Source: a phage
DNA: 64,000 bases
Strand: one strand, 5' to 3'
Sequence record: PQ400055.1
In this document: one piece after another, positions 26,706 to 46,747 of the stretch
Layout of the letters: the number at the start of each line of letters is the position of its first letter
Position numbering within the stretch: the stretch's first letter is position 1
Notes under the pieces: model-generated
What the model saw: the letters and a program-made list of their open reading frames with translations, nothing else
Told to the model about the DNA's origin: nothing
The model's database searches: none
Position numbers and translations under genes: made by a program

Positions 26706-27518
26706 TCAATCTACGTTAGTTACATAAACTTCTTGCGTATCAGAAGACTTGCCACCTGAACGATCTAGGCAATAGGTCTTATTCAACAAGACGCAGTTTA
26801 AATCATTCCGCTTGATAAAGTCAAGAAGATGATCATTTGCCTTTCCCTTATGATGCGTGACATTACTTATACCAAACTGAAAACCACGCGCCATAATAGA
26901 TTCTACCCACTGATAGAATTTAATCTCTTCCTCGTCACTCCAGAACTTATTGTATTCCGCAGAAGTGATAAGGTACGGCGGGTCCAAATAAACGAAATCA
27001 CCTGGCAAGATCTCGATCTCGTCATAACGACCAGAAGTAAAACTGATTCGACCGTCTTTGTTTTCTTCCTTAAAATTCAGGACGCGCTCTACCGCGTTTT
27101 CGTTAAAAGTCCGTCGGCCAAAATTAGCATTAAATTCTCCCTTCCTGTTATGGCGGTTAATGTTGCTAAAACTGTGCTGAATCAACACAAACAGAGATAG
27201 AGGGTCTGGATTCTCGTTATACTTCTTACGGAATGTCATGTAAGCGTCTTTATCTTCGCGAGACAAACCATTTTCGGCAATAATACGCTTGATCGTAGAA
27301 ACCGGATCAGGACACTCATCAATGGCCTTGTAAGCGTCAATTAAGCGATGATCATAGTCATTAGCCAGTACATCACCTTCAACATACAGAGACACGCTCA
27401 AGCCACCACAAAAGGCATCAACAAAGCGGTTATAGTGCTTAGGGAAATATTTACTAACACCGGGCAATAACTTTTCCTTATTGCCCGTATAGGGAATTAA
27501 ACCTAATGCTTTCTTCAT
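26706..27518 (-). CDS. dam: Dam DNA N6-adenine methyltransferase
   Basis: 270 aa; PYTGNK, NRFVDAFCGGLSVSL, DPPYLITSAEYNKFWSDEEE almost identical to the T4 Dam motifs. Confidence 0.88.
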   Translation of the reverse strand: MKKALGLIPYTGNKEKLLPGVSKYFPKHYNRFVDAFCGGLSVSLYVEGDVLANDYDHRLIDAYKAIDECPDPVSTIKRIIAENGLSREDKDAYMTFRKKYNENPDPLSLFVLIQHSFSNINRHNRKGEFNANFGRRTFNENAVERVLNFKEENKDGRISFTSGRYDEIEILPGDFVYLDPPYLITSAEYNKFWSDEEEIKFYQWVESIMARGFQFGISNVTHHKGKANDHLLDFIKRNDLNCVLLNKTYCLDRSGGKSSDTQEVYVTNVD

Positions 27519-27949
27519 TATCCCTTCCTCAAATAAGTTCGCTCAATCTCTACCAGTTCGAAAAATTCATCCCAATCACACGGAAAGTTGCAGTTTCCGA
27601 AATGATCCTCTTTGTAAAGTTCTTTACCGGATGGCAGCTTAATATCTGTTACGCTGTAGTATCCACAACAATCGCAATCACCCTCTGTATATTCTGTTTT
27701 AGTCGGAATATCCATCATTGCCAGATACAAAGGTACATCGTCTTGCTCAAAGTTCATGTAACCTTCATGGTCAAACGAGACAAAATTGTCATCACCCAAA
27801 AAAGGGATATAATGGTCATAATCGGTTACAGGTTGACCGTGTAATTCCCATTCTACAATTTTAACATTACCACTAAATTTTATACCCATAATTTCAACAA
27901 GAAAATGAGTATCGTCAATGTAAATCTTACTAGGGGTTGGATAAACCAT
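27518..27949 (-). CDS. hypothetical protein
   Basis: 143 aa minus-strand ORF, stop/start overlap with dam. Confidence 0.5.
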   Translation of the reverse strand: MVYPTPSKIYIDDTHFLVEIMGIKFSGNVKIVEWELHGQPVTDYDHYIPFLGDDNFVSFDHEGYMNFEQDDVPLYLAMMDIPTKTEYTEGDCDCCGYYSVTDIKLPSGKELYKEDHFGNCNFPCDWDEFFELVEIERTYLRKG

Positions 27950-27959
27950 TATATAATCC

Positions 27960-28256
27960 TCATATATCAGAGAATAGAATCTCTGTTAGCTTCACTGACT
28001 GCTCTCTGAATGTTAGCGTATACTCGAAAGGAAAGTCAACACCTAATTTCAGAAGAGAATAGCCTACCGCCTCTTTATGCTTATCGGTTAGGGCGATCCT
28101 AACCAATTCCCGTTGAATCTCTTTAGGCGGTGAATGGATAGTAACACGGGTATCATGCAATGTCCAGTCACCATTTCGAATTAAGATTAACGGTTTATCA
28201 TCATTGAAGATCACCGACCCCTTTCCGGTCGGTGAGTGTTTTATACTAATCATCAA
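27960..28256 (-). CDS. hypothetical protein
   Basis: 98 aa ORF. Confidence 0.45.
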   Translation of the reverse strand: MMISIKHSPTGKGSVIFNDDKPLILIRNGDWTLHDTRVTIHSPPKEIQRELVRIALTDKHKEAVGYSLLKLGVDFPFEYTLTFREQSVKLTEILFSDI

Positions 28257-28467
28257 ATTCTAAGAAATATTCTGGAACGATATAACCGTTAAAGTCATTA
28301 CACTTATAAAAATGTGGTGCATTTAATGCTGGATGAGCATTAGTAAAGAGTTTACCCTCTAGAAACAGAATGTAATTAATAGGTCTAATACCTACAGAAT
28401 CAGGGTCTAAACCTTTTTCTTTCAGTTCAGCCAGCGTTAAAACTCGTCCAGATCGTAACTTAGCCAT
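28246..28467 (-). CDS. hypothetical protein
   Basis: 73 aa ORF. Confidence 0.4.
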   Translation of the reverse strand: MAKLRSGRVLTLAELKEKGLDPDSVGIRPINYILFLEGKLFTNAHPALNAPHFYKCNDFNGYIVPEYFLEFDD

Positions 28468-28753
28468 GATTTACCCCTAATTCATCAAGATTATGTCGCA
28501 GCATTTCAGAGTATTTTTCTACTTCCTTGATCTTAGTGTGGATCTCCACGATCTCATCTTCACTATCAGATAGTTTAATGGCAATAGCGAGCGTGCTTTT
28601 ACCAGCTTTCATAGTCTCTTTCCGTTCAACCAATAGATCCGCGTGTTTCAATAGCAATTCTTCACGTCGAACATAAGCGACGGTCAAAGCCTCATCAGCG
28701 ATTTCTAAAGCATTTTCAGCGACACCAACAACCATTTTACGAGTAGACAGCAT
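28460..28753 (-). CDS. hypothetical protein
   Basis: 97 aa ORF, helical/charged. Confidence 0.45.
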   Translation of the reverse strand: MLSTRKMVVGVAENALEIADEALTVAYVRREELLLKHADLLVERKETMKAGKSTLAIAIKLSDSEDEIVEIHTKIKEVEKYSEMLRHNLDELGVNHG

Positions 28754-28767
28754 AAATTCACCTCACA

Positions 28768-29112
28768 TTATTTCACGTTAACGCCGTTATCAATCCAGCC
28801 GACGCTATTTGGTTTAACAGTTTTACCATAGGATGCATACTTAATCAAGCATGGTTTAACATCATTATCAAATCTTCCTAAACGTACTCCCAAATCAGGA
28901 ATATCCATGTATGCGGCTTTATATCCCCATGTACCGTATTCAGAATCAATCTCAACCGGACGGCCTTTAAAAGCATACACTACACCGTGACGGTCAACGA
29001 TAACATAGCGATAGCCAGCCGGAAGATACACAGTTTCGCCGTAAACTTTAACTGGAGTAGCAGAAGAGATAAACATAATATAATCCTCACATCGTTCATT
29101 TGATGCGGTCAT
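28768..29112 (-). CDS. hypothetical protein
   Basis: 114 aa ORF. Confidence 0.45.
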   Translation of the reverse strand: MTASNERCEDYIMFISSATPVKVYGETVYLPAGYRYVIVDRHGVVYAFKGRPVEIDSEYGTWGYKAAYMDIPDLGVRLGRFDNDVKPCLIKYASYGKTVKPNSVGWIDNGVNVK

Positions 29113-29146
29113 TATATGATAACCGCATTTTCATGTCAACAGTTTT

Positions 29147-29521
29147 TTAAAAATCTTCTTCCGGTTTATATCGACCGTCATCGACTGGTTTTGGACTGAA
29201 TCCTTTATGCGTGCGCGGCTTCGCTTCCGGTTTACCAGCAATCATCAAACCAAAACATTTCAGCCCCTTATAACACATAACAATATCAACCACGGTCCAC
29301 GTTATAGGCCAGACGATTGCAGCAATACAAAATGCTCCTGTATCGACCTCTTTGGTGTCCTTGTCGAATCTGGCATACAAGCAGAATACTAGATACGAGA
29401 TCATTGCACCAGTAATCCAGATATAAAGTACATTAACAATATCTTGTGTTGTCAAATTGTCCTCCTTACATGTCTTGCAGTGCATAAAAGCATTTTTCTT
29501 CGTAGTCATAGAAAATGTCAA
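29147..29521 (-). CDS. predicted membrane protein
   Basis: Track start is a non-ATG codon (true start probably at internal M5 or M13); two hydrophobic segments. Confidence 0.45.
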   Translation of the reverse strand: MTFSMTTKKNAFMHCKTCKEDNLTTQDIVNVLYIWITGAMISYLVFCLYARFDKDTKEVDTGAFCIAAIVWPITWTVVDIVMCYKGLKCFGLMIAGKPEAKPRTHKGFSPKPVDDGRYKPEEDF

Positions 29522-29744
29522 AGTATGCTTTTTCTACATACTCGCCATTGATCCAAGCGGCAGTAACAATCAGAGTGGTCCAGGTAGATCCGCTCTCAAC
29601 GGTAAAGGTTTTAATACCCAGCTTCGCTGCCAAGTCGAACGCAAACCGGACGCAACCACGGCAGGAAGTGATATTGGAAGTTTTGATTTTAAAGCCACCG
29701 CGAGTTTTAGAAATTTCTACTTTAGCGAAAGACAGGTTGCTCAT
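29466..29744 (-). CDS. hypothetical protein
   Basis: Start at internal ATG (M20) directly after the conserved leader and AAGGAG. Confidence 0.45.
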   Translation of the reverse strand: MSNLSFAKVEISKTRGGFKIKTSNITSCRGCVRFAFDLAAKLGIKTFTVESGSTWTTLIVTAAWINGEYVEKAYFDIFYDYEEKCFYALQDM

Positions 29745-29786
29745 TTTGATTCTCCTTAAGAAAGTGTGTTTCGTTTTGATGTGTGT

Positions 29787-29815
29787 AGTATAGGGGATCA
29801 CCGATCCCCTGTCAA
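29787..29815 (-). promoter_or_regulatory. sigma70-type promoter (TTGACA-17-TATACT) with GATC palindrome spacer
   Basis: Spacer GGGGATCGGTGATCCCC (two GATC sites); conserved leader ACATCAAAACGAAACACACTTTCTTAAGGAG. Confidence 0.45.
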
Positions 29816-29831
29816 CAACTTTTTTATGATT

Positions 29832-30152
29832 TTAGTGAATTAACTCTACACCAAAATGAGGCACAGAGAACGCCTTACAAAACACATATTCATCATGTTT
29901 AGGAATCGCCCCTAACCGCTCTATTTCGCTCGCTAACACTATAAACTGTTTATCTGGTGCATATGCCTTGCGTGCTTCAACAACGCACGGAAAACGCGTT
30001 TTAGAGAGTTCTGGATAGTTTTCCGAATCCAACAGGACAATGAATACCCTGTTACATTGATTGTAGAATCCTGTTTTTGATTTCATCAAGTTTTCTTCTC
30101 TGTACAATTCGTGCAATCTTCCTTTCATGATTTCGTTGGTTCTTGTCTTCAC
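29832..30152 (-). CDS. hypothetical protein
   Basis: 106 aa ORF; overlaps next ORF so the start is probably internal. Confidence 0.4.
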   Translation of the reverse strand: MKTRTNEIMKGRLHELYREENLMKSKTGFYNQCNRVFIVLLDSENYPELSKTRFPCVVEARKAYAPDKQFIVLASEIERLGAIPKHDEYVFCKAFSVPHFGVELIH

Positions 30153-30369
30153 AGTTTACCCATTCAACAAGGTCTTTACCTAACTCGAAAGCCCATTCTC
30201 GGTCCTGCTTTACGTTTTGTAGGTATGGACTTTCTGACACTCTACGAAGTGATGTTGTCGTAACAAGAATGATCTCAGGAATGGTCGGATGTTCTTTTCC
30301 ATATACAATAGGACGCGAGTCACTATCAATACCTTGTAAGAAGGTGTATCCTGAATCACTTAGAATCAT
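30052..30369 (-). CDS. hypothetical protein
   Basis: 105 aa ORF. Confidence 0.4.
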   Translation of the reverse strand: MILSDSGYTFLQGIDSDSRPIVYGKEHPTIPEIILVTTTSLRRVSESPYLQNVKQDREWAFELGKDLVEWVNCEDKNQRNHERKIARIVQRRKLDEIKNRILQSM

Positions 30370-30388
30370 ATACTTTTCATTTCACACA

Positions 30389-30646
30389 TCACAGTTTCCT
30401 CAACCAGTTATTCAAGCGAGTAAACCATGATGCTTTTCGTGCTTCTTTTACTTTATGTGCACGTAAACCACTGAAACACCATTCATAATCATCACTGAAA
30501 CATGATTCAACAGGAACACCCGCATTTCGTAGTTCTCTGGTCTTTATCATGAATCCTTGACATAAGGGGCGACCTTCAACAATGATAGGAAGTTTAACTT
30601 TTTCCATGAAAGTATACCCAGCACGGTCAATAATTTCAATTTTCAT
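30389..30646 (-). CDS. hypothetical protein
   Basis: 85 aa ORF. Confidence 0.45.
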   Translation of the reverse strand: MKIEIIDRAGYTFMEKVKLPIIVEGRPLCQGFMIKTRELRNAGVPVESCFSDDYEWCFSGLRAHKVKEARKASWFTRLNNWLRKL

Positions 30647-30890
30647 TTACATTGTCTCCATAGATCTTTCCAGCAATATCAATTTCACCAGCGCGAACAT
30701 CTAGGATAAGATGCGGTAGGTGTATGCAGTTTTCCCACCCCACTCGCTTCATTTCTTCTACGGTAATATAAGCCCACCCGTTCGCTGTAATAAAGTCTAC
30801 TTCAACCTTGAGAGGAAAGCAAGACTTTTCTATGTCTTCGAATCCGATAATGTGTTTTGTCGTTGAATATGGAATATATCCGGTGATCAT
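30636..30890 (-). CDS. hypothetical protein
   Basis: 84 aa ORF. Confidence 0.45.
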   Translation of the reverse strand: MITGYIPYSTTKHIIGFEDIEKSCFPLKVEVDFITANGWAYITVEEMKRVGWENCIHLPHLILDVRAGEIDIAGKIYGDNVNEN

Positions 30891-31348
30891 TTTGTGATCT
30901 CCTTATACTCAACACACCATAAGCGGGTAGCCCATGATAAACACTCATAACGCTGGCAGAAATCGGACCATAGATATTGTGCACCGTTCGGCATAGTTGA
31001 AATATGCGTTTTCTCTCCAACTTTCACGAAAGAAGTATTCGATTTTGTGATCTCGACCGGAGTATATCCGAAAGCGGGTTCCAAGCCAACATCTGAACTA
31101 AATGCCAATTTAACAGAATTTGTTTTTCTGACCGCTGTCCGGTTTCCTTCTGGGTATAGTACAGCAGGTTTAGCGCCTAAGCGGATAAACTCAGTGTTTT
31201 TAATAAACAGAATATCATGATAACCGTCATATTCCGACACTTCCATAGTAACAGGAAAATCGACATGTGCTAAACCTGGTAGATCTCGCATATCATGAAA
31301 GGTCGCCATCAACTTTTTCATTCTATATTCCTCACTCTTCTGTTTCAT
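30887..31348 (-). CDS. hypothetical protein
   Basis: 153 aa ORF. Confidence 0.5.
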   Translation of the reverse strand: MKQKSEEYRMKKLMATFHDMRDLPGLAHVDFPVTMEVSEYDGYHDILFIKNTEFIRLGAKPAVLYPEGNRTAVRKTNSVKLAFSSDVGLEPAFGYTPVEITKSNTSFVKVGEKTHISTMPNGAQYLWSDFCQRYECLSWATRLWCVEYKEITK

Positions 31349-31568
31349 TTCTTTTATATGGTACTATAACAGGATTAATACAGCAAGCACCAATTACGTT
31401 ATGAGCACCACAATTTAAGCATTTATAATCATGGAACTTATTAAGGAATCGCCCGAACTCATAACCGACTAGCGCAGCATGTACTTGAGTCTCGATCTCA
31501 TCCATATCAGCCAATGTTTTAACCTTCATAATATAATCCTCAAATTGTAGTTTTGCGAAGATGGTCAT
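31332..31568 (-). CDS. hypothetical protein (CxxC pair)
   Basis: 78 aa; CLNCGAHNVIGACC. Confidence 0.4.
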   Translation of the reverse strand: MTIFAKLQFEDYIMKVKTLADMDEIETQVHAALVGYEFGRFLNKFHDYKCLNCGAHNVIGACCINPVIVPYKRNETEE

Positions 31569-31830
31569 TACATGCTTTTAATGCATCGGTCGCGGTGTCA
31601 TAGCGAGTATTATCATAGCACCAATAACCATCTGTCAACTGATAAATTAATCCATCCTTTTTAGCTTCGATGAAAGATAACTCTTTGAAAGTTTCTACTT
31701 TCTTTGCTGATAATCCACGGTCACGGCGTTTATAGAGTTTAGCTAAAATGCGTTCAGCTTGTTCCTCTTTATCGCCAGACAGATCCCAGATGATGTTTCT
31801 TATATGCTTGATTAATTGTTCAGTGGTCAT
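31540..31830 (-). CDS. hypothetical protein
   Basis: 96 aa ORF downstream of a promoter. Confidence 0.45.
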   Translation of the reverse strand: MTTEQLIKHIRNIIWDLSGDKEEQAERILAKLYKRRDRGLSAKKVETFKELSFIEAKKDGLIYQLTDGYWCYDNTRYDTATDALKACNDHLRKTTI

Positions 31831-31859
31831 CTTTGATTCTCCTTAGTTGGTATGCGTGC

Positions 31860-31887
31860 ATTATAGCATTGTGATTATCTTTGTCAA
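31860..31887 (-). promoter_or_regulatory. sigma70-type promoter (TTGACA-16-TATAAT)
   Basis: Exact hexamers; conserved leader and AGGAGAATCAAA. Confidence 0.5.
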
Positions 31888-31891
31888 CACC

Positions 31892-31925
31892 CAAAAACAA
31901 AAAAGGCTATCCCGAAGGATAGCCC
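31892..31925 (-). terminator. rho-independent terminator after glycine-rich gene
   Basis: GGCTATCC-ttcg-GGATAGCC hairpin plus T-run on the minus strand. Confidence 0.55.
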
Positions 31926-31931
31926 ATAAAA

Positions 31932-32717
31932 TTACACACGAGCGCCGTAGATCGTGCCTACTTTATCCCAGCGTGGGGCATTACCAGTAACAGCTTTACC
32001 CGCAGCACCACCCGAGTGAACAGTTACACCAGTACCACCTTTAATATATGAAGATTTGCCAGCAGCTCCCAAATCTCCACCATCTCCTCCATAATGAACC
32101 CCAGAAACAGTGCCTTTACCTGGGGCAGAAATTGTACCAGCAGATGCTGCCGCTGCGCCGCCTCCTGCCGCACCCGCAGCACCAAATGGACGGCCTCCAC
32201 CGCCGCCAAATTTCATATCCATTTGAGGGAAAGGATTGTATCTAGCACCAGCACCGCCACCACCGCCACCACCAATAATACCATTATTGTTTATTCTTAA
32301 ACGAGTTCCAATTCCGTTATTTATTGCATTTCCTCCTGCTCCACCAGCAGAGTTACTTCCGCCATTTCCTCCACGACCTAATACATGAACACCAGAGTTA
32401 ATAATGAGTGTTACATATTCGTTTGTCAGTGAGCTAGGGAAATCAAGACAAGGAACGCCAGTAGATTGGGAAACAATATTACCCGTGATAGTAATTACTA
32501 CCGGAGTAGATCCTTGTGCTTTCATCCAGTTAATAAGAGTGTCTTTATTGTAAGAGTTACTAGCACCAATGCTATAATGAATCTCTTTAGAGCGTCCGAC
32601 CATTGCCGACATATACGCCGGACGACCTAAGCGAACAGCTTGCATTGCGGCGCTCATCCACCGTTGACCAGTCTCGGACACAGCAGATGATCCTACCCAT
32701 CCAGAAGATATTGCCAT
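31932..32717 (-). CDS. glycine-rich protein (globular N-terminal domain plus Gly/Ala low-complexity region)
   Basis: 261 aa; ATG with GAGG upstream; GGGGGGGAGA, FGGGGGRPFGAAGAAGGGAAAA tracts; flanked by terminator hairpins on both sides. Confidence 0.55.
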   Translation of the reverse strand: MAISSGWVGSSAVSETGQRWMSAAMQAVRLGRPAYMSAMVGRSKEIHYSIGASNSYNKDTLINWMKAQGSTPVVITITGNIVSQSTGVPCLDFPSSLTNEYVTLIINSGVHVLGRGGNGGSNSAGGAGGNAINNGIGTRLRINNNGIIGGGGGGGAGARYNPFPQMDMKFGGGGGRPFGAAGAAGGGAAAASAGTISAPGKGTVSGVHYGGDGGDLGAAGKSSYIKGGTGVTVHSGGAAGKAVTGNAPRWDKVGTIYGARV

Positions 32718-32728
32718 AAAATTTCCTC

Positions 32729-32753
32729 ACAAGAAAAGCCCCAATTAAGGGGC
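32729..32753 (-). terminator. terminator-like hairpin
   Basis: GCCCC-ttaatt-GGGGC followed by TTTTCTT on the minus strand. Confidence 0.4.
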
Positions 32754-32771
32754 ATTGATTGATAATATTAC

Positions 32772-32993
32772 TTAGATGACCTCTGCTTCACCATTCAGGA
32801 AGAAAGACCATGTTTTGTTAGGATAGCGAAGCGCCCATGATTCAGCGGTTTTAACACCAGCTTCGAACAATTGACGGCTGGTTACTTTAGCCATACCATC
32901 TTCGATGGCAACGTTTTCAATAATCATCGGGTACTTAGCGCCACGCATGAAACCGAAGCCAGCGGAAGATTTGATAATTTTAACCGTTGCCAT
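32772..32993 (-). CDS. hypothetical protein
   Basis: 73 aa ORF downstream of a promoter. Confidence 0.45.
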   Translation of the reverse strand: MATVKIIKSSAGFGFMRGAKYPMIIENVAIEDGMAKVTSRQLFEAGVKTAESWALRYPNKTWSFFLNGEAEVI

Positions 32994-33034
32994 TTTTGAT
33001 TCTCCTAGAAAGTGTATCTCGTTTCGATGTGTGT

Positions 33035-33063
33035 ATTATGCAATAACACCGGATCGCTGTCAA
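33035..33063 (-). promoter_or_regulatory. sigma70-type promoter (TTGACA-17-CATAAT)
   Basis: Conserved leader ACACACATCGAAACGAGATACACTTTCTAGGAGAATCAAA. Confidence 0.45.
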
Positions 33064-33081
33064 CACTTTCTAAGAAAAATT

Positions 33082-33366
33082 TTAAATTAATCTAATATAG
33101 CCCAGAATTTCAGCACTTTTAGCCAGTCCTAAAACTTCCCATTCAAGGTCGCCGTAGTCATAATTTGCAACCATCAACTGACCATTTTTCATGCAGCATT
33201 CATGAGAGAAAATTTGCCCCGCATAAACTACGATAGTAATAAACTTTCCTGATTCTGGCGGTGTGGAAGACAAAGCGACCATATGACCATTCAGCTTAGT
33301 CACCAGTGATGGAACAATAAAATTCGGGCTTACCTGAATACCGTTAAATTCGTTTGTGTCTTTCAT
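33082..33366 (-). CDS. hypothetical protein
   Basis: 94 aa ORF. Confidence 0.45.
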   Translation of the reverse strand: MKDTNEFNGIQVSPNFIVPSLVTKLNGHMVALSSTPPESGKFITIVVYAGQIFSHECCMKNGQLMVANYDYGDLEWEVLGLAKSAEILGYIRLI

Positions 33367-33713
33367 GCCAGACCTCGCAAAACACTAATAGCATAATCAT
33401 GCTGGTTATTCATAATATCGATTGCATTGTGATAACGAGCTAAACCATCAAGGATAAATTCTTGTTTATCCTGTTTCAGTTTGGTATCACGCGCAGCCAT
33501 AAGAGCATCAAGAACAGGTCCAAAGTGATTATCTAATTCATCTTCGGTTGCAATGTTTCCTATTGCCTCGTCGATCCGTGATTCTAATGCTTGCTTTTCG
33601 TTGATCACTTGCTGGGTATATTCCAACACATCAAGAATATCGCGGGTAACGTCGCCATGATAAGGTATTCCCGCATGAAGATGATCAATTAGTCGTTGAA
33701 TGTCAATGTTCAT
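33363..33713 (-). CDS. hypothetical protein
   Basis: 116 aa ORF. Confidence 0.45.
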   Translation of the reverse strand: MNIDIQRLIDHLHAGIPYHGDVTRDILDVLEYTQQVINEKQALESRIDEAIGNIATEDELDNHFGPVLDALMAARDTKLKQDKQEFILDGLARYHNAIDIMNNQHDYAISVLRGLA

Positions 33714-34048
33714 TTGTAACCCTCCTCTGAAAGCACATCCCAGATCGTTGAGTCAAGGTGCATTAAATTCCACATAATAGAGTCATAACTACCGAAGCCA
33801 GAAGTAAAAATTACATCACACTGGCGATAGGTCTTATGAAAATCGGTGGCTGTCTCTGCATCAATAGGCATATCGTCACCGGAAAGCACCAGACATTTAA
33901 GAATCATAACTCTGTTAGCCGTTGGCGCTTGCTTAGTCTTTTCAGCATATTTTTCGATGATCCGTTTTGCCTTTTCTTCTTTGATACGTCCAGACCAAAT
34001 CCGGTTTCGGTATTGATTCATAATAATTTCAATCACATCATTTTGCAT
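33710..34048 (-). CDS. hypothetical protein
   Basis: 112 aa ORF. Confidence 0.45.
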   Translation of the reverse strand: MQNDVIEIIMNQYRNRIWSGRIKEEKAKRIIEKYAEKTKQAPTANRVMILKCLVLSGDDMPIDAETATDFHKTYRQCDVIFTSGFGSYDSIMWNLMHLDSTIWDVLSEEGYK

Positions 34049-34247
34049 TCTTCACGGTCTCCATAATTGTTTTGTAAGCCAGTTTAAGATGATCACCGAA
34101 AAACTTTGCGGTGTTACCCTTCGGATCGCGGAGCATGGTTTCTACGATCTCATCGGCAGTAACAATTTCTCCTTTCTTTGCTGCATGTTCTACCATATAC
34201 TTCAAAGTTTCTTCGGAAGCAAGTGCTGCCGCTACTGGATTAATCAT
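34038..34247 (-). CDS. hypothetical protein
   Basis: 69 aa ORF downstream of a promoter. Confidence 0.45.
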   Translation of the reverse strand: MINPVAAALASEETLKYMVEHAAKKGEIVTADEIVETMLRDPKGNTAKFFGDHLKLAYKTIMETVKNAK

Positions 34248-34277
34248 TTTTGATTCTCCTTTGTTGTCGATGTGTGC

Positions 34278-34306
34278 ATTATGCTATACCCTATTCCGGT
34301 TGTCAA
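34278..34306 (-). promoter_or_regulatory. sigma70-type promoter (TTGACA-17-CATAAT)
   Basis: Same architecture and leader as other copies. Confidence 0.45.
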
Positions 34307-34310
34307 CACC

Positions 34311-34342
34311 TAAAAACGAAAAAGCCACCCTTTCGGATGGCT
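34311..34342 (-). terminator. rho-independent terminator
   Basis: GCCATCC-gaaa-GGGTGGC hairpin plus TTTTTCGTTTTT on the minus strand. Confidence 0.5.
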
Positions 34343-34575
34343 TTTGATTATATTTTATTCACGTCCATTTGTATAGTAGTGTTTGAATCGACCTTTGCTA
34401 AACTAGTTAAACATAGTAACCAATTCACCATCCCTTTCCAATGATAACCCTTCCTCGTCTTAGACGGGTCTTCCGATTCGGCAGTAATTGAACACGCGAA
34501 AGTATGAGGAAGCCAAATAGTTGTGTTAATGCTAGTATTCTTTTACTTCTGGTATGCATCCCACGGTGACTAACA

Positions 34576-34974
34576 TTAAGACAGTCGAGTGAGTTTATAA
34601 ATTGTTTTAAAACATAGAGCTTTGATATCGTCTAAAACGCTCTGTAACGAGCTATCAACATCATTATAAATCTCACTAGCCATTTGCGTTAACTCTTGCA
34701 AATAGGCAATTTCGCTAATCTCCTTGCGGACGACCAACGTTGGCTGATAACGACCAGTGATCCCAATATTGGTTTCAGTGAAATCATCAACCAATTCTTG
34801 CATTTCAAGATAGAACTCTTCTAGAGCCTTATGTTTTGCATAAGATCCAGGACCAGTTACTCCAAAATGCGCAGAATGCATATAAGTAACACTCATCAGA
34901 CATTCACCGATAAAGCGGTCAACTTTATTAGCTTTCCCCTCTTCGGACGTCTTTCGAAAATCACTGAATTTCAT
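34576..34974 (-). CDS. ferritin/Dps-like four-helix-bundle protein (tentative)
   Basis: Start at internal ATG (M34); HSAHFGVTGPGSYAKHKALEEFY pattern resembles the Dps HWNxxGxxFxxxHE motif; assignment by memory only. Confidence 0.4.
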   Translation of the reverse strand: MKFSDFRKTSEEGKANKVDRFIGECLMSVTYMHSAHFGVTGPGSYAKHKALEEFYLEMQELVDDFTETNIGITGRYQPTLVVRKEISEIAYLQELTQMASEIYNDVDSSLQSVLDDIKALCFKTIYKLTRLS

Positions 34975-35263
34975 GTTCTCGATTCTCCATATTATGCAAC
35001 ATAACAAACTGTTGTGCGGCATATTCCCCCATAATAAAACACTGCTTAGAATCCATACATTTACTACGAGCATACATCTTCATAATATGGGCATGAAATT
35101 TCTGGCTGGTTTCAATGGAAGGAGATATTTTGTTTACATATACTATCATTGCACCGTCGAAATAATCAGTAAAATCACCAGTTGGATCATATTGATCAGC
35201 ACTGACACTTCCGACCGCAGTCAAGCATATTGCCGCTGTTAGAGTTTTACGAATAAATGACAT
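34961..35263 (-). CDS. secreted/periplasmic protein with signal peptide
   Basis: 100 aa; N-terminus MSFIRKTLTAAICLTAVGSVSA-DQ is a typical Sec signal peptide. Confidence 0.5.
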   Translation of the reverse strand: MSFIRKTLTAAICLTAVGSVSADQYDPTGDFTDYFDGAMIVYVNKISPSIETSQKFHAHIMKMYARSKCMDSKQCFIMGEYAAQQFVMLHNMENREHEIQ

Positions 35264-35331
35264 AAGTCATTCCCCCAGATTAAAAATATTCAGTTATATT
35301 TATAATCTGGGGCTTTATTTATGATTAACTC

Positions 35332-35928
35332 TTATTTGGTAGTACCGTCAATAAAATGTTTACGGCACACAGAGACATATTTATCCTCTGCACCAACTTC
35401 TATTTGAGCACCATCGCGAATAACATTACCCTCTTTATCTACACGAAGGACCATTGTTGCTTTCTTGCCACAATGACAAATACCCTTCATTTCGACCAGT
35501 TTATCAGCAAATGCCATTAATGCCGCAGATCCTTCAAATAGATTGCCCTGAAAGTCGGTGCGAAGGCCATAGCACAGTACAGGGATATTTGCATCATCGA
35601 CAAGCGCACACAAGCCTAAAACATGCTCTTTAGTCATAAATTGGGCTTCATCTACAAATACAGCATCAGGACGCCATCGATCCGGTCTACGCTTACCTAA
35701 CGATTCACGATAAACCAAATCGAAAAGATCATCCGATTTAGTGAAGGTGATCGCTGGAGCACTTAGACCAATTCGGGAAACAACTTCACTTTCTGAATCT
35801 CGATTATCAATCGCTGGCTTAAGAATTAATACTCGCATATCACGTTCGGTATAGTTATAAGCACTTTGTAACAGAGAAGTTGATTTGCCAGCGTTCATAG
35901 ATGCATAGTAGAAATATAGTTGCGCCAT
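35332..35928 (-). CDS. tk: thymidine kinase
   Basis: 198 aa; P-loop ASMNAGKST, VFVDEAQF, CYGLRTDF, zinc ribbon CHCGKKAT...VCRKH; T4 Tk-like. Confidence 0.9.
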   Translation of the reverse strand: MAQLYFYYASMNAGKSTSLLQSAYNYTERDMRVLILKPAIDNRDSESEVVSRIGLSAPAITFTKSDDLFDLVYRESLGKRRPDRWRPDAVFVDEAQFMTKEHVLGLCALVDDANIPVLCYGLRTDFQGNLFEGSAALMAFADKLVEMKGICHCGKKATMVLRVDKEGNVIRDGAQIEVGAEDKYVSVCRKHFIDGTTK

Positions 35929-36221
35929 TAATTAATCTCCAAAAATCCAGCAAGACCTAAACCGATATAAGTCCAGATACAAAGGAAAAAGAAGCAAACA
36001 CCCATAGCAAAGATAAATCCTCGTAGTGTCTTTGGATAACCTACCCAATATTCCCGACCATCTTCTAACCGGATCAGCTTATTTCCTTGAGAGTCCATAT
36101 CAATTACAACATGTTTATTTCTGGATTGTAACAGATATTGCTTGACAATCTCAATACCCGCCATAATAACAATAACGAAATTGAAAGTCCACATAACAAG
36201 GTTAATGGTAGTCTCAAGCAT
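35928..36221 (-). CDS. predicted membrane protein
   Basis: 97 aa; hydrophobic segments. Confidence 0.45.
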   Translation of the reverse strand: MLETTINLVMWTFNFVIVIMAGIEIVKQYLLQSRNKHVVIDMDSQGNKLIRLEDGREYWVGYPKTLRGFIFAMGVCFFFLCIWTYIGLGLAGFLEIN

Positions 36222-36456
36222 TTTCTATCACCTCCACCCAATCAGGCGTTTCCTGAAATACTCCTTCGCCTTCGTGGTGGATGCATCCTTTATTGCTACA
36301 ATACATCCACCAATCCCACATTCCCCACGGTAAACGCTGCATATCGTCGTTACAGCAAGTGAAGACAATAGGCAAACCACATCTAACACATCGGCAGTTT
36401 TCCTTCATGTGAGCGGTATTAGGCTTCTTCATAGATGACTCCAATATAATCGACAT
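36214..36456 (-). CDS. Cys-rich small protein
   Basis: 80 aa; CRCVRCGLPIVFTCCN ... CSNKGC. Confidence 0.4.
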   Translation of the reverse strand: MSIILESSMKKPNTAHMKENCRCVRCGLPIVFTCCNDDMQRLPWGMWDWWMYCSNKGCIHHEGEGVFQETPDWVEVIENA

Positions 36457-36659
36457 TTACATTTAGGGCAATGCGGTTCTTTAATATAATACCCGTCTGT
36501 CTTTGGAACACTAACAGGAGCGGTTTTTATATTGTATTCCGTGAAACAACGAAAACAAGTTACGTTTTCCACAGACTGACGTTTCACCCAATAACCGGAA
36601 TAGAGGTCATTTTTATTTGTCATATTCCACCACCACAATGTTAATGTCTGGAGTAGCAA
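36429..36659 (-). CDS. zinc-ribbon small protein
   Basis: 76 aa; CFRCF ... CPKCKC. Confidence 0.4.
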   Translation of the reverse strand: MLLQTLTLWWWNMTNKNDLYSGYWVKRQSVENVTCFRCFTEYNIKTAPVSVPKTDGYYIKEPHCPKCKCRLYWSHL

Positions 36660-37068
36660 TATTAATGATTTCTTCTACACATTCCCACTCAAGGCCACCG
36701 ATACCGCAACCGATTTTAGGGATATAGAAAGGCTGTATAGCACCTTCAAAAACATCATTGAGAGTCTCAAATCCTTTCAGGATAGCACCATATTCAGCAT
36801 TTGGACCCGGTCGGAATTGGGTATAGAGATTCACCCCGCACCAGTTATAACCATTAACTTGATGCGTCCAGACACTAAACCCACCCAACTTTTCTACCTT
36901 ACCGCGAGAAGTTTGCTTGTCAATCTCTAACGCTTGCGGGAACTCTTTCGCGATATCCGCAGCAATACCAGCGCCCATAGTATGAAAACAATTACAACCA
37001 TGAATTAAATGACCGTTTCCTTGTTTAAACAGGGCGATGAGATCGCCCTTTACAGTATCAATAATCAT
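36613..37068 (-). CDS. macro domain protein (ADP-ribose binding/processing)
   Basis: 151 aa; HGCNCFHTMGAGIAADIAKEF and IPKIGCGIGGLEW fit the macrodomain glycine-rich loops. Confidence 0.65.
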   Translation of the reverse strand: MIIDTVKGDLIALFKQGNGHLIHGCNCFHTMGAGIAADIAKEFPQALEIDKQTSRGKVEKLGGFSVWTHQVNGYNWCGVNLYTQFRPGPNAEYGAILKGFETLNDVFEGAIQPFYIPKIGCGIGGLEWECVEEIINIATPDINIVVVEYDK

Positions 37069-37083
37069 AATATAAACCTCTCA

Positions 37084-37443
37084 TTAGTCACGGGAAGACA
37101 ACCCAGCCATAAAACGGCTTAACAGTGTGTCGCGATAAGCAAAGCATAATTGCTTATCAGGGGCAGTATCACACAGGTTACGTTTTGTTTTAGCAAAGCT
37201 GGCAATACTCAGATCCCACGCTCGATTTTTTCGTTTTTCGTCTCGACCTTGTTTGTATGCCTCGTCAAGTTCAAGCGCGATAAAATCGCTACACATGTTA
37301 TCATCATCACAGAAGGTTTTAATGATCTTTTTGTTGATCTCAAATCCTTTGTATTCGAACTTTGGATAAGGGCGCTCATTACTAGCAAGCGCACCAGCCG
37401 AGAACATCATAGCAATCATAGCAACTATTGTCAACTTTTTCAT
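37084..37443 (-). CDS. periplasmic protein with signal peptide
   Basis: 119 aa; MKKLTIVAMIAMMFSAGALA-SN signal peptide; several Cys. Confidence 0.5.
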   Translation of the reverse strand: MKKLTIVAMIAMMFSAGALASNERPYPKFEYKGFEINKKIIKTFCDDDNMCSDFIALELDEAYKQGRDEKRKNRAWDLSIASFAKTKRNLCDTAPDKQLCFAYRDTLLSRFMAGLSSRD

Positions 37444-37450
37444 ATATTCC

Positions 37451-46386: not shown

Positions 46387-46579
46387 TAGACACCCCACGA
46401 CGATCAATTTCAAAAACTTTTTTACCATCAACGAAGCATGTCACAACTGCCTCGTTGACTTCCGCAAATTGTTGTGTTACCCACTTAAGGTCAGAGCGAA
46501 ACAATGTTCTATTAATAACAAATGTTTTACCGCTCTTATCCTTACCCATAAATTTTGCTTTAACCATATCCAATTCCAT
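46376..46579 (-). CDS. hypothetical protein
   Basis: 67 aa ORF. Confidence 0.4.
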   Translation of the reverse strand: MELDMVKAKFMGKDKSGKTFVINRTLFRSDLKWVTQQFAEVNEAVVTCFVDGKKVFEIDRRGVSNDH

Positions 46580-46588
46580 ATTATCACC

Positions 46589-46747
46589 TTATTTGCCAAT
46601 CGCTAAACCCAATCCGAAGAGAGCACCCGATGCTACAGTATACCCGAAAGTTTCAAATGCAGTAAAGATATCTAAGCCACCAGCTAACAGAGTTGCAGTA
46701 AACAGAGTACCAGCTACGAACATAAAAGTTTTACCGATGAATTTCAT
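46589..46747 (-). CDS. small membrane peptide (52 aa)
   Basis: Below track cutoff; ATG directly after conserved leader and AAGGAGAATCAAA; glycine-zipper-like hydrophobic sequence. Confidence 0.3.
   Translation of the reverse strand: MKFIGKTFMFVAGTLFTATLLAGGLDIFTAFETFGYTVASGALFGLGLAIGK

Follow-up and report, generated by a model that had tools for sequence, protein, structure and literature searches.

The tk.4 (adfM) ortholog of a Krischvirus coliphage encodes a stand-alone macrodomain protein with glutamine at the catalytic position and a probable role against DarT2

The window studied here, a 64,000-nucleotide stretch of phage DNA (sequence record PQ400055.1), carries on its minus strand a gene for a stand-alone macrodomain protein that is the syntenic ortholog of tk.4 (adfM) of phage T4. 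Based on its class, its active site residues and the published phenotype of the T4 gene, this protein is probably an anti-DarT2 enzyme that hydrolyzes thymidine-linked ADP-ribose in DNA. The gene is real, but it was known already: it has been annotated as a macrodomain, and an anti-DarT role has been published for the T4 ortholog. The 3.4 kb around the gene are 97–99.6% identical to 58 genomes of Krischvirus (RB49-like) coliphages, including RB49 and W115, and the window is that of a Krischvirus coliphage. Existing records name the gene tk.4 in RB49, “macro domain protein” in W115 and “phosphatase” in several other phages.

The open reading frame (ORF) of 151 residues runs from an ATG start to a stop codon, and its translation contains the two glycine-rich loops from which the original prediction had proposed a macrodomain, HGCNCFHTMGAGIA (residues 23–36) and IGCGIGG (residues 119–125). 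That identity was borne out by matches in Pfam, PHROG, PADLOC and the PDB that were far above chance. The Pfam Macro family (PF01661) was matched from end to end (profile positions 1–118 of 118; E = 2.1e-6; 28.1 bits, above the gathering score of 22), PHROG 335 was matched with E = 2.5e-62 and the PADLOC model of DarG with E = 1.5e-14 (model positions 3–141 of 329), and the sequence matches in the PDB were to DarG, TARG1 and BT1257. An AlphaFold2 model based on an input of 67 homologs had a predicted local distance difference test (pLDDT) score of 96.2 and a predicted template modeling (pTM) score of 0.90, and had the three-layer alpha/beta/alpha fold with the Gly-rich ADP-ribose-binding loops of the macrodomain superfamily. 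A Foldseek search of the PDB with this model returned TARG1 first (4J5S; E = 2e-9, template modeling (TM) score 0.78, 28% identity), followed by the DarG proteins of Thermus and Mycobacterium, Poa1p, BT1257 and SCO6735, and the ranking was the same when PDB sequences were scored with a profile of the phage family. By structure and by sequence the protein is therefore nearer to the ALC1-like proteins TARG1, DarG and SCO6735 than to the MacroD, coronavirus and PARG types, and we regard its placement as a macrodomain of the TARG1/DarG/SCO6735 class as virtually certain. The objection that structure prediction might yield no macrodomain fold, which had accompanied the original prediction, fails because the Pfam match, the AlphaFold2 model, the Foldseek search and the profile ranking all gave a macrodomain.

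The order regB, vs.1, vs, tk.4, three small ORFs, tk is common to the window and T4. T4 Tk.4 shares 44% identity with the window protein (66 of 150 aligned residues; tblastn over residues 1–150, E = 3e-40) and was scored at 165 bits by the family profile. This full-length homology, together with the equal genomic position relative to tk, vs.1 and regB, makes the gene a member of the Tk.4/AdfM family and the ortholog of T4 tk.4. The family is a large one, as homologs of the macrodomain were found in 2735 of 50,697 phage records from many hosts.

The evidence for a function of the Tk.4 family comes from the literature. In a 2025 bioRxiv preprint describing HIDEN-SEQ, a T4 transposon library was screened on a DarTG2 host and tk.4 was the sole significant hit; a clean tk.4 knock-out made T4 specifically sensitive to DarTG2, and on this basis the gene received its new name adfM, for anti-DarT factor Macrodomain (10.1101/2025.11.20.689424). 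Earlier work had found that T-even phages resist DarTG2 by a route independent of AdfA and AdfN. The phenotype of the T4 knock-out lends support to the counter-defence role against DarT-like toxins that had been suggested for the window gene from its sequence. In addition, we scanned the control phage sensitive to DarTG2, T5, with the family profile over all of its 1068 six-frame stretches and detected no Tk.4-type macrodomain (best score 10.5 bits, E = 0.028); the positive controls of this small correlative check (T4, Murica and Serratia phage 92A1) reached 152–197 bits.

The active site of the phage protein differs from those of DarG and TARG1 at the catalytic position. Three independent alignments (phmmer to 5m3i, the family profile to 4j5r, and MAFFT) placed Gln84, within the motif NLYTQF, opposite the catalytic lysine, which is Lys84 in TARG1 and Lys80 in DarG. 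Gln84 is present in 120 of the 123 family members, T4 Tk.4 included. Asn26 and Gly24 are kept in all 123 members and His23 in 119, Gly122 is kept in 121 of 121 sequences of the family alignment, and there is essentially no variation in the loop glycines. The second catalytic residue of TARG1, Asp125, aligns to Gly124 of the phage protein. A glutamine at the catalytic position combined with a conserved asparagine is the pattern of the SCO6735/Bt_1257 subgroup, and the SCO6735 equivalents of His23, Asn26, Gln84 and Gly122 are His24, Asn27, Gln85 and Gly128 (numbering checked on the 5e3b chain, where an offset of 20 reproduces His24, Asn27, Lys34, Gln85 and Lys89). In SCO6735, activity is lost in the Q85A mutant and almost lost in N27S, and an effect of G128E has also been described (Hloušek-Kasun et al., PMC9411070). 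The same study reported that SCO6735 outpaces both DarG and TARG1 in removing the thymidine-ADP-ribose made by DarT, that it rescues cells from this toxin, and that it does not act on guanine-ADP-ribose.

We propose that host DarT2 would ADP-ribosylate thymidines in single-stranded phage DNA and so block replication, and that the phage enzyme would hold the ADP-ribose in a cleft formed by its HGCNC...MGAGIA and IGCGIGG loops and hydrolyze the thymine–ribose bond, restoring unmodified DNA. Catalysis would probably resemble that of SCO6735, with Asn26 holding Gln84 and Gln84 positioning the distal ribose and the water. Catalysis of the DarG or TARG1 kind is unlikely because the catalytic lysine, and Asp125 of TARG1, are absent. 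A longer mobile loop, by five residues, has been given as a hallmark of the SCO6735/Bt_1257 subclass (PMC9411070), and this loop is absent from the phage family, as the HMMER alignments needed an insertion of 5–6 residues in 5e3b and 2fg1. The phage family is therefore best described as a subgroup of its own, with the Gln-type chemistry on a scaffold of TARG1 length.

Several points weigh against the assignment of the Krischvirus protein as a DNA thymidine-ADP-ribose hydrolase. Its functional role is drawn from orthologs, and we infer a shared substrate and role for a protein that is only 44% identical to T4 Tk.4. The evidence for T4 AdfM is itself only genetic, and removal of ADP-ribose from DNA was inferred by its authors (10.1101/2025.11.20.689424). 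Lys34 and Lys89 of SCO6735, which are proposed DNA contacts, are replaced by Ala33 and Gly88 in the phage protein; without these lysines and the longer mobile loop, the DNA-binding model of SCO6735 is not simply transferable. Finally, proteins of this class also cleave Glu/Asp-linked ADP-ribose on proteins (PMC9411070) and uracil-ADP-ribose in RNA (PMC13036486), so that the physiological substrate range may exceed thymidine in DNA.

This last point leads to the reading that the protein is a broader eraser of nucleic acid ADP-ribosylation, which would remove RNA marks such as uracil-ADP-ribose made by other host transferases and for which DarT2 would be one of several opponents. Uracil-linked ADP-ribose on RNA is removed by TARG1, by DarG and, above all, by SCO6735 (PMC13036486), and the wide distribution of the family over phages of many hosts would fit such a role. 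However, possession of tk.4 does not spare T4 from strong defence by CmdTAC, a system built on an mRNA ADP-ribosyltransferase (PMC11618068), and the literature cited here knows of no bacterial defence based on uracil-ADP-ribose in RNA. We give the broader activity a slim chance, and it would extend the anti-DarT2 explanation and not replace it.

An equally slim chance is given to a small-molecule hydrolase, either a Poa1p-like ADP-ribose-1''-phosphate phosphatase or an O-acetyl-ADP-ribose deacetylase, that would clear by-products of RNA repair or of sirtuins. PHROG 335 and many GenBank records bear the label “phosphatase”, T4 Tk.4 has been annotated as “contains A1pp phosphatase motif”, and Poa1p and OARD1 are both close to the phage protein, with TARG1/OARD1 doubling as an O-acetyl-ADP-ribose deacetylase according to PDB molecule names. 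It has also been argued that soluble ADP-ribose derivatives may be the preferred substrates of many phage macrodomains (Iyer et al., PMC9503650). The phosphatase label comes from homology and not from an assay, however, and is probably misleading for the family. In this class, side activities on small molecules are often seen in vitro and do not have to be the biological role. The sole known phenotype of an ortholog is DarTG2 sensitivity, and no KptA/Tpt1 or sirtuin gene was found adjoining tk.4 in the window.

We consider it very unlikely that the protein erases ADP-ribose from proteins, either by reversing the marks of the phage ModB and Alt transferases to tune host takeover or by removing marks that host toxins place on proteins of the phage or the host. 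RB49 does encode the ADP-ribosyltransferase ModB, at a site outside the window, and regulation of the phage's own ADP-ribosylation had been offered in the original prediction as an alternative to counter-defence; even with ModB present in RB49, that alternative gained no positive evidence. The Alt and Mod transferases of T4-type phages modify arginine. Macrodomains of the TARG1/DarG class are not known to cleave the arginine linkage, and this linkage speaks against an eraser of protein marks. In RB49 a distance of about 40 kb separates tk.4 from modB, which gives no genetic link between them. SCO6735 and TARG1 hydrolyze Glu/Asp-linked protein ADP-ribose, as noted above, but in competition between the two kinds of substrate SCO6735 strongly favors DNA over protein (PMC9411070). 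That the protein is a non-catalytic binder, which in the absence of the canonical lysine sequesters ADP-ribosylated DNA or directly inhibits DarT2, is extremely unlikely: Gln stands in place of Lys84/Lys80 and Gly in place of TARG1 Asp125, and dead mutants of SCO6735, DarG and TARG1 still inhibit DarT in vitro, but SCO6735 is highly active with a Gln at this position and loses its activity in the Q85A mutant (PMC9411070), the phage protein has no counterpart of the C-terminal DarT-binding domain of DarG, and the almost invariant Asn26, His23 and Gly-rich loops of the 123 homologs form the pattern of an active enzyme.

The macrodomain gene lies in a tightly packed string of genes on the minus strand (Table 1). 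The two small Cys-rich ORFs that the original prediction had placed upstream of it (here Zn1 and Zn2) exist and match PF23903 and PF23895, both “Phage zinc binding domain” families of Pfam, but they lie downstream of the macrodomain gene because all genes in this region are on the minus strand. Their likely starts are internal ATGs at 36623 and 36432, as in the RB49 and W115 annotations, and not the starts of the longest ORFs, which reach 36659 and 36456. The co-transcription that had been suggested for these ORFs is plausible from the overlapping stop and start codons: tk.4 and Zn1 overlap by 11 nucleotides, Zn1 and Zn2 by 4 (ATGA), Zn2 and the membrane protein ORF by 8, and the latter and tk by 1. 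Upstream, vs is separated from tk.4 by 15 nucleotides and vs.1 from vs by 7, and the only sizeable gaps are 85 nucleotides after regB and 68 after tk. This tight packing argues for a single transcript from vs.1 to tk with translational coupling. A sigma-70-type site between regB and vs.1 could drive the string, though it is only a candidate, as the 18 promoter-like sites in 35000..39500 were not above the background of shuffled sequence (14.2 +/- 3.1). A scan of the same interval found no convincing terminator between vs.1 and tk, and with the promoter scan at background the transcription unit is argued from gene packing alone. The plus-strand ORFs within the macrodomain gene are 36–37 residues long and unsupported, and no feature of the opposite strand is suggested. 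Rfam and tRNA scans of the window returned no matches.

Table 1. Features of the macrodomain gene and of the surrounding gene string (window coordinates).
Feature	Coordinates	Strand	Evidence
tk.4/adfM ortholog, stand-alone macrodomain of the ALC1-like (TARG1/DarG/SCO6735) class	36613..37068	-	151 residues
First ADP-ribose-binding loop, H23-A36 HGCNCFHTMGAGIA	36961..37002	-	Coordinates checked
N80-G88 (NLYTQFRPG), with Gln84 at 36817..36819	36805..36831	-	HMMER alignments (5m3i, 4j5r, 5e3b, 2fg1) and MAFFT
Phosphate-binding loop I119-G125 (IGCGIGG)	36694..36714	-	Translation and alignments
Shine-Dalgarno-like GAGAGG, 8 nucleotides 5' of the tk.4 ATG	37077..37082	-	Putative, from reading of the sequence
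Zn1, CxxC...CxxC zinc-ribbon ORF, 64 residues, Pfam PF23903	36429..36623	-	E = 1.7e-23; PHROG 4864
Zn2, Cys/His-rich ORF, 72 residues, Pfam PF23895	36214..36432	-	E = 6e-33
Predicted membrane protein, 97 residues	35928..36221	-	PHROG 16027; W115 “putative membrane protein”
Thymidine kinase (tk), downstream end of the string	35332..35928	-	Pfam TK, E = 9.6e-52
vs (valyl-tRNA synthetase modifier), directly 5' of tk.4	37084..37443	-	PHROG 1256; RB49 and W115 annotation
vs.1 (SLT-type lytic transglycosylase domain), first after the regB gap	37451..38041	-	Pfam SLT, E = 6.6e-6; annotation
Candidate sigma-70-type promoter TTGACT-17-TATTAT, regB/vs.1 gap	38076..38104	-	Consensus scan

At the upstream border of the string, the longest regB ORF (38127..38591, minus strand) has a TTG start and encodes 154 residues, and RB49 and W115 annotate a form of 140 residues from 38549. 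In the 154-residue form, Pfam REGB_T4 is matched from residue 19 onward.

To examine the zinc-binding ORFs in other phages, homologs of Zn1 were sought by tblastn against phage genomes and IMG/VR. Zn1 was present in 234 phage records and Zn2 in 785, including the tk–tk.4 interval of T2 and RB14; a Zn1 search of a collection of 5.8 billion proteins gave one match, apparently frameshifted. The Vequintavirus Murica has the macrodomain and Zn1 in the same order, with 69% and 78% protein identity, respectively (67% and 74% at the DNA level), and 1–2 variable small ORFs sit between the two genes in Vequintavirus. Within the Murica block only these two genes match Krischvirus, both far above the 44% identity of the T4 ortholog. 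The high identity and the restriction of the match to two genes suggest that the macrodomain and Zn1 may have been exchanged horizontally as a block between Krischvirus and the unrelated Vequintavirus.

A comparison of the context of Zn1 in six lineages showed it behind different partners. In GAP32-like jumbo phages Zn1 follows an Acb1-like anti-CBASS 2H phosphodiesterase (Pfam PF23474, E = 5.7e-16) near NAMPT, Sir2 and Nudix genes, in Mydovirus it follows an HD phosphohydrolase, and in two further lineages it follows small ORFs only. We considered Zn1 and Zn2 as general partners of the macrodomain and rejected this, as T4 has the unrelated tk.1–tk.3 and, in other lineages, Zn1 comes after different enzymes or after small ORFs. 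Zn1 may be an accessory factor or a mere resident of anti-defence islands. The stronger proposal, that the macrodomain and the overlapping Zn1 form a mobile two-gene counter-defence cassette in which Zn1 is an accessory or second anti-defence factor behind varied defence-neutralizing hydrolases, we think unlikely, and the pattern over the six lineages is a lead and not a finding.

Three other observations were made in the window. A 143-residue Cys-rich ORF at 27518..27949 (minus strand), adjoining the Dam methyltransferase gene, shares 37% identity with Murica gp189 (PHROG 8157); in Murica, the gp189 gene and the start of the macrodomain gene overlap, and the gp189 counterpart in the window is about 9 kb from the macrodomain gene. 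The coordinates of the window and W115 coincide at about 34.5–39 kb and are offset from each other by about 261 bp near 27 kb, which indicates at least one insertion or deletion between the two phages within about 27000..35000. Based on the annotation and coordinates of W115, 46394..46597 (minus strand) would encode a homolog of Dmd, an antitoxin-like inhibitor of RnlA/LsoA, which would be another counter-defence gene of the orphan antitoxin type in the same early region.

If the anti-DarT2 assignment is correct, the tk.4 ortholog would be one layer of a T4-like armour against DarTG that helps to explain DarTG2 resistance, and it would be useful in predicting host range and in the choice of phages for therapy. 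For T4 and PhiKZ, the principle is already in print. The modest addition made by our analysis is that the T4-type family, with its 2735 phage records, has Gln and not Lys at the catalytic position, and that the two phage proteins named AdfM fall into different subgroups. Neither of the AdfM papers (10.1101/2025.11.20.689424; PMC13309987) mentions the glutamine or SCO6735.

Among the known systems, DarG (PDB 5M3I, 5M3E, 7OMU) has Lys80 where the phage protein has Gln. We rejected DarG proper as an identification: NCBIfam NF048014 gave 49.8 bits against an equivalog cut-off of 250 bits and was matched at positions 2–141 of 338 only, the C-terminal DarT-binding domain is missing (151 residues against about 330–340 model positions), and no darT adjoins the gene, whose neighbors are vs, vs.1, the zinc-ribbon ORFs and tk. 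The protein may be viewed as a stand-alone, DarG-like “orphan antitoxin”, akin to the macrodomain of DarG minus its toxin-binding domain and analogous to the NADAR protein AdfN acting against DarTG1. Human TARG1/OARD1 is unlike the phage protein in having Lys84 and Asp125 in place of Gln84 and Gly124; it removes thymine- and uracil-linked ADP-ribose (PMC13036486). SCO6735 of Streptomyces coelicolor and Bt_1257 (PDB 5E3B, 2FG1) are only about 21–24% identical to the phage protein, and SCO6735 is a chromosomal bacterial gene and not a phage counter-defence gene, but given the Gln at the catalytic position the T4-type family should be modeled on SCO6735 rather than on DarG.

T4 Tk.4 is similar in size to the window protein (155 residues against 151), both have the motifs NLYTQF.PGPN.EY and HGCNCFHTMG and Gln at the lysine position, and the RB49 copy has borne the name tk.4 ever since its GenBank annotation. 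The two differ in genus (Tequatrovirus for T4, Krischvirus here) and in their downstream ORFs, as tk.1–tk.3 of T4 are unrelated to Zn1, Zn2 and the membrane protein ORF of Krischvirus. Gp104 of PhiKZ, the AdfM of chimalliviruses, is likewise a stand-alone phage macrodomain directed against DarTG2, and biochemical work has demonstrated that it takes DarT2-made ADP-ribose off DNA (Cell Rep 2026, PMC13309987). Unlike the window protein, it is imported into a phage nucleus; it came from a search with another query, and translation of the construct sequence printed in that paper showed that it keeps the DarG-type lysine in the motif “FPTK”, in contrast to “YTQ” in the Tk.4 family. It follows that the two proteins named AdfM belong to different subgroups, and PhiKZ gp104 would represent an independent recruitment under a shared name. 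A Gln-dependent, SCO6735-like mechanism in the T4-type AdfM, recruited separately from the Lys-type AdfM of PhiKZ, is a smaller point than the idea of a Zn1 cassette but more likely to be new.
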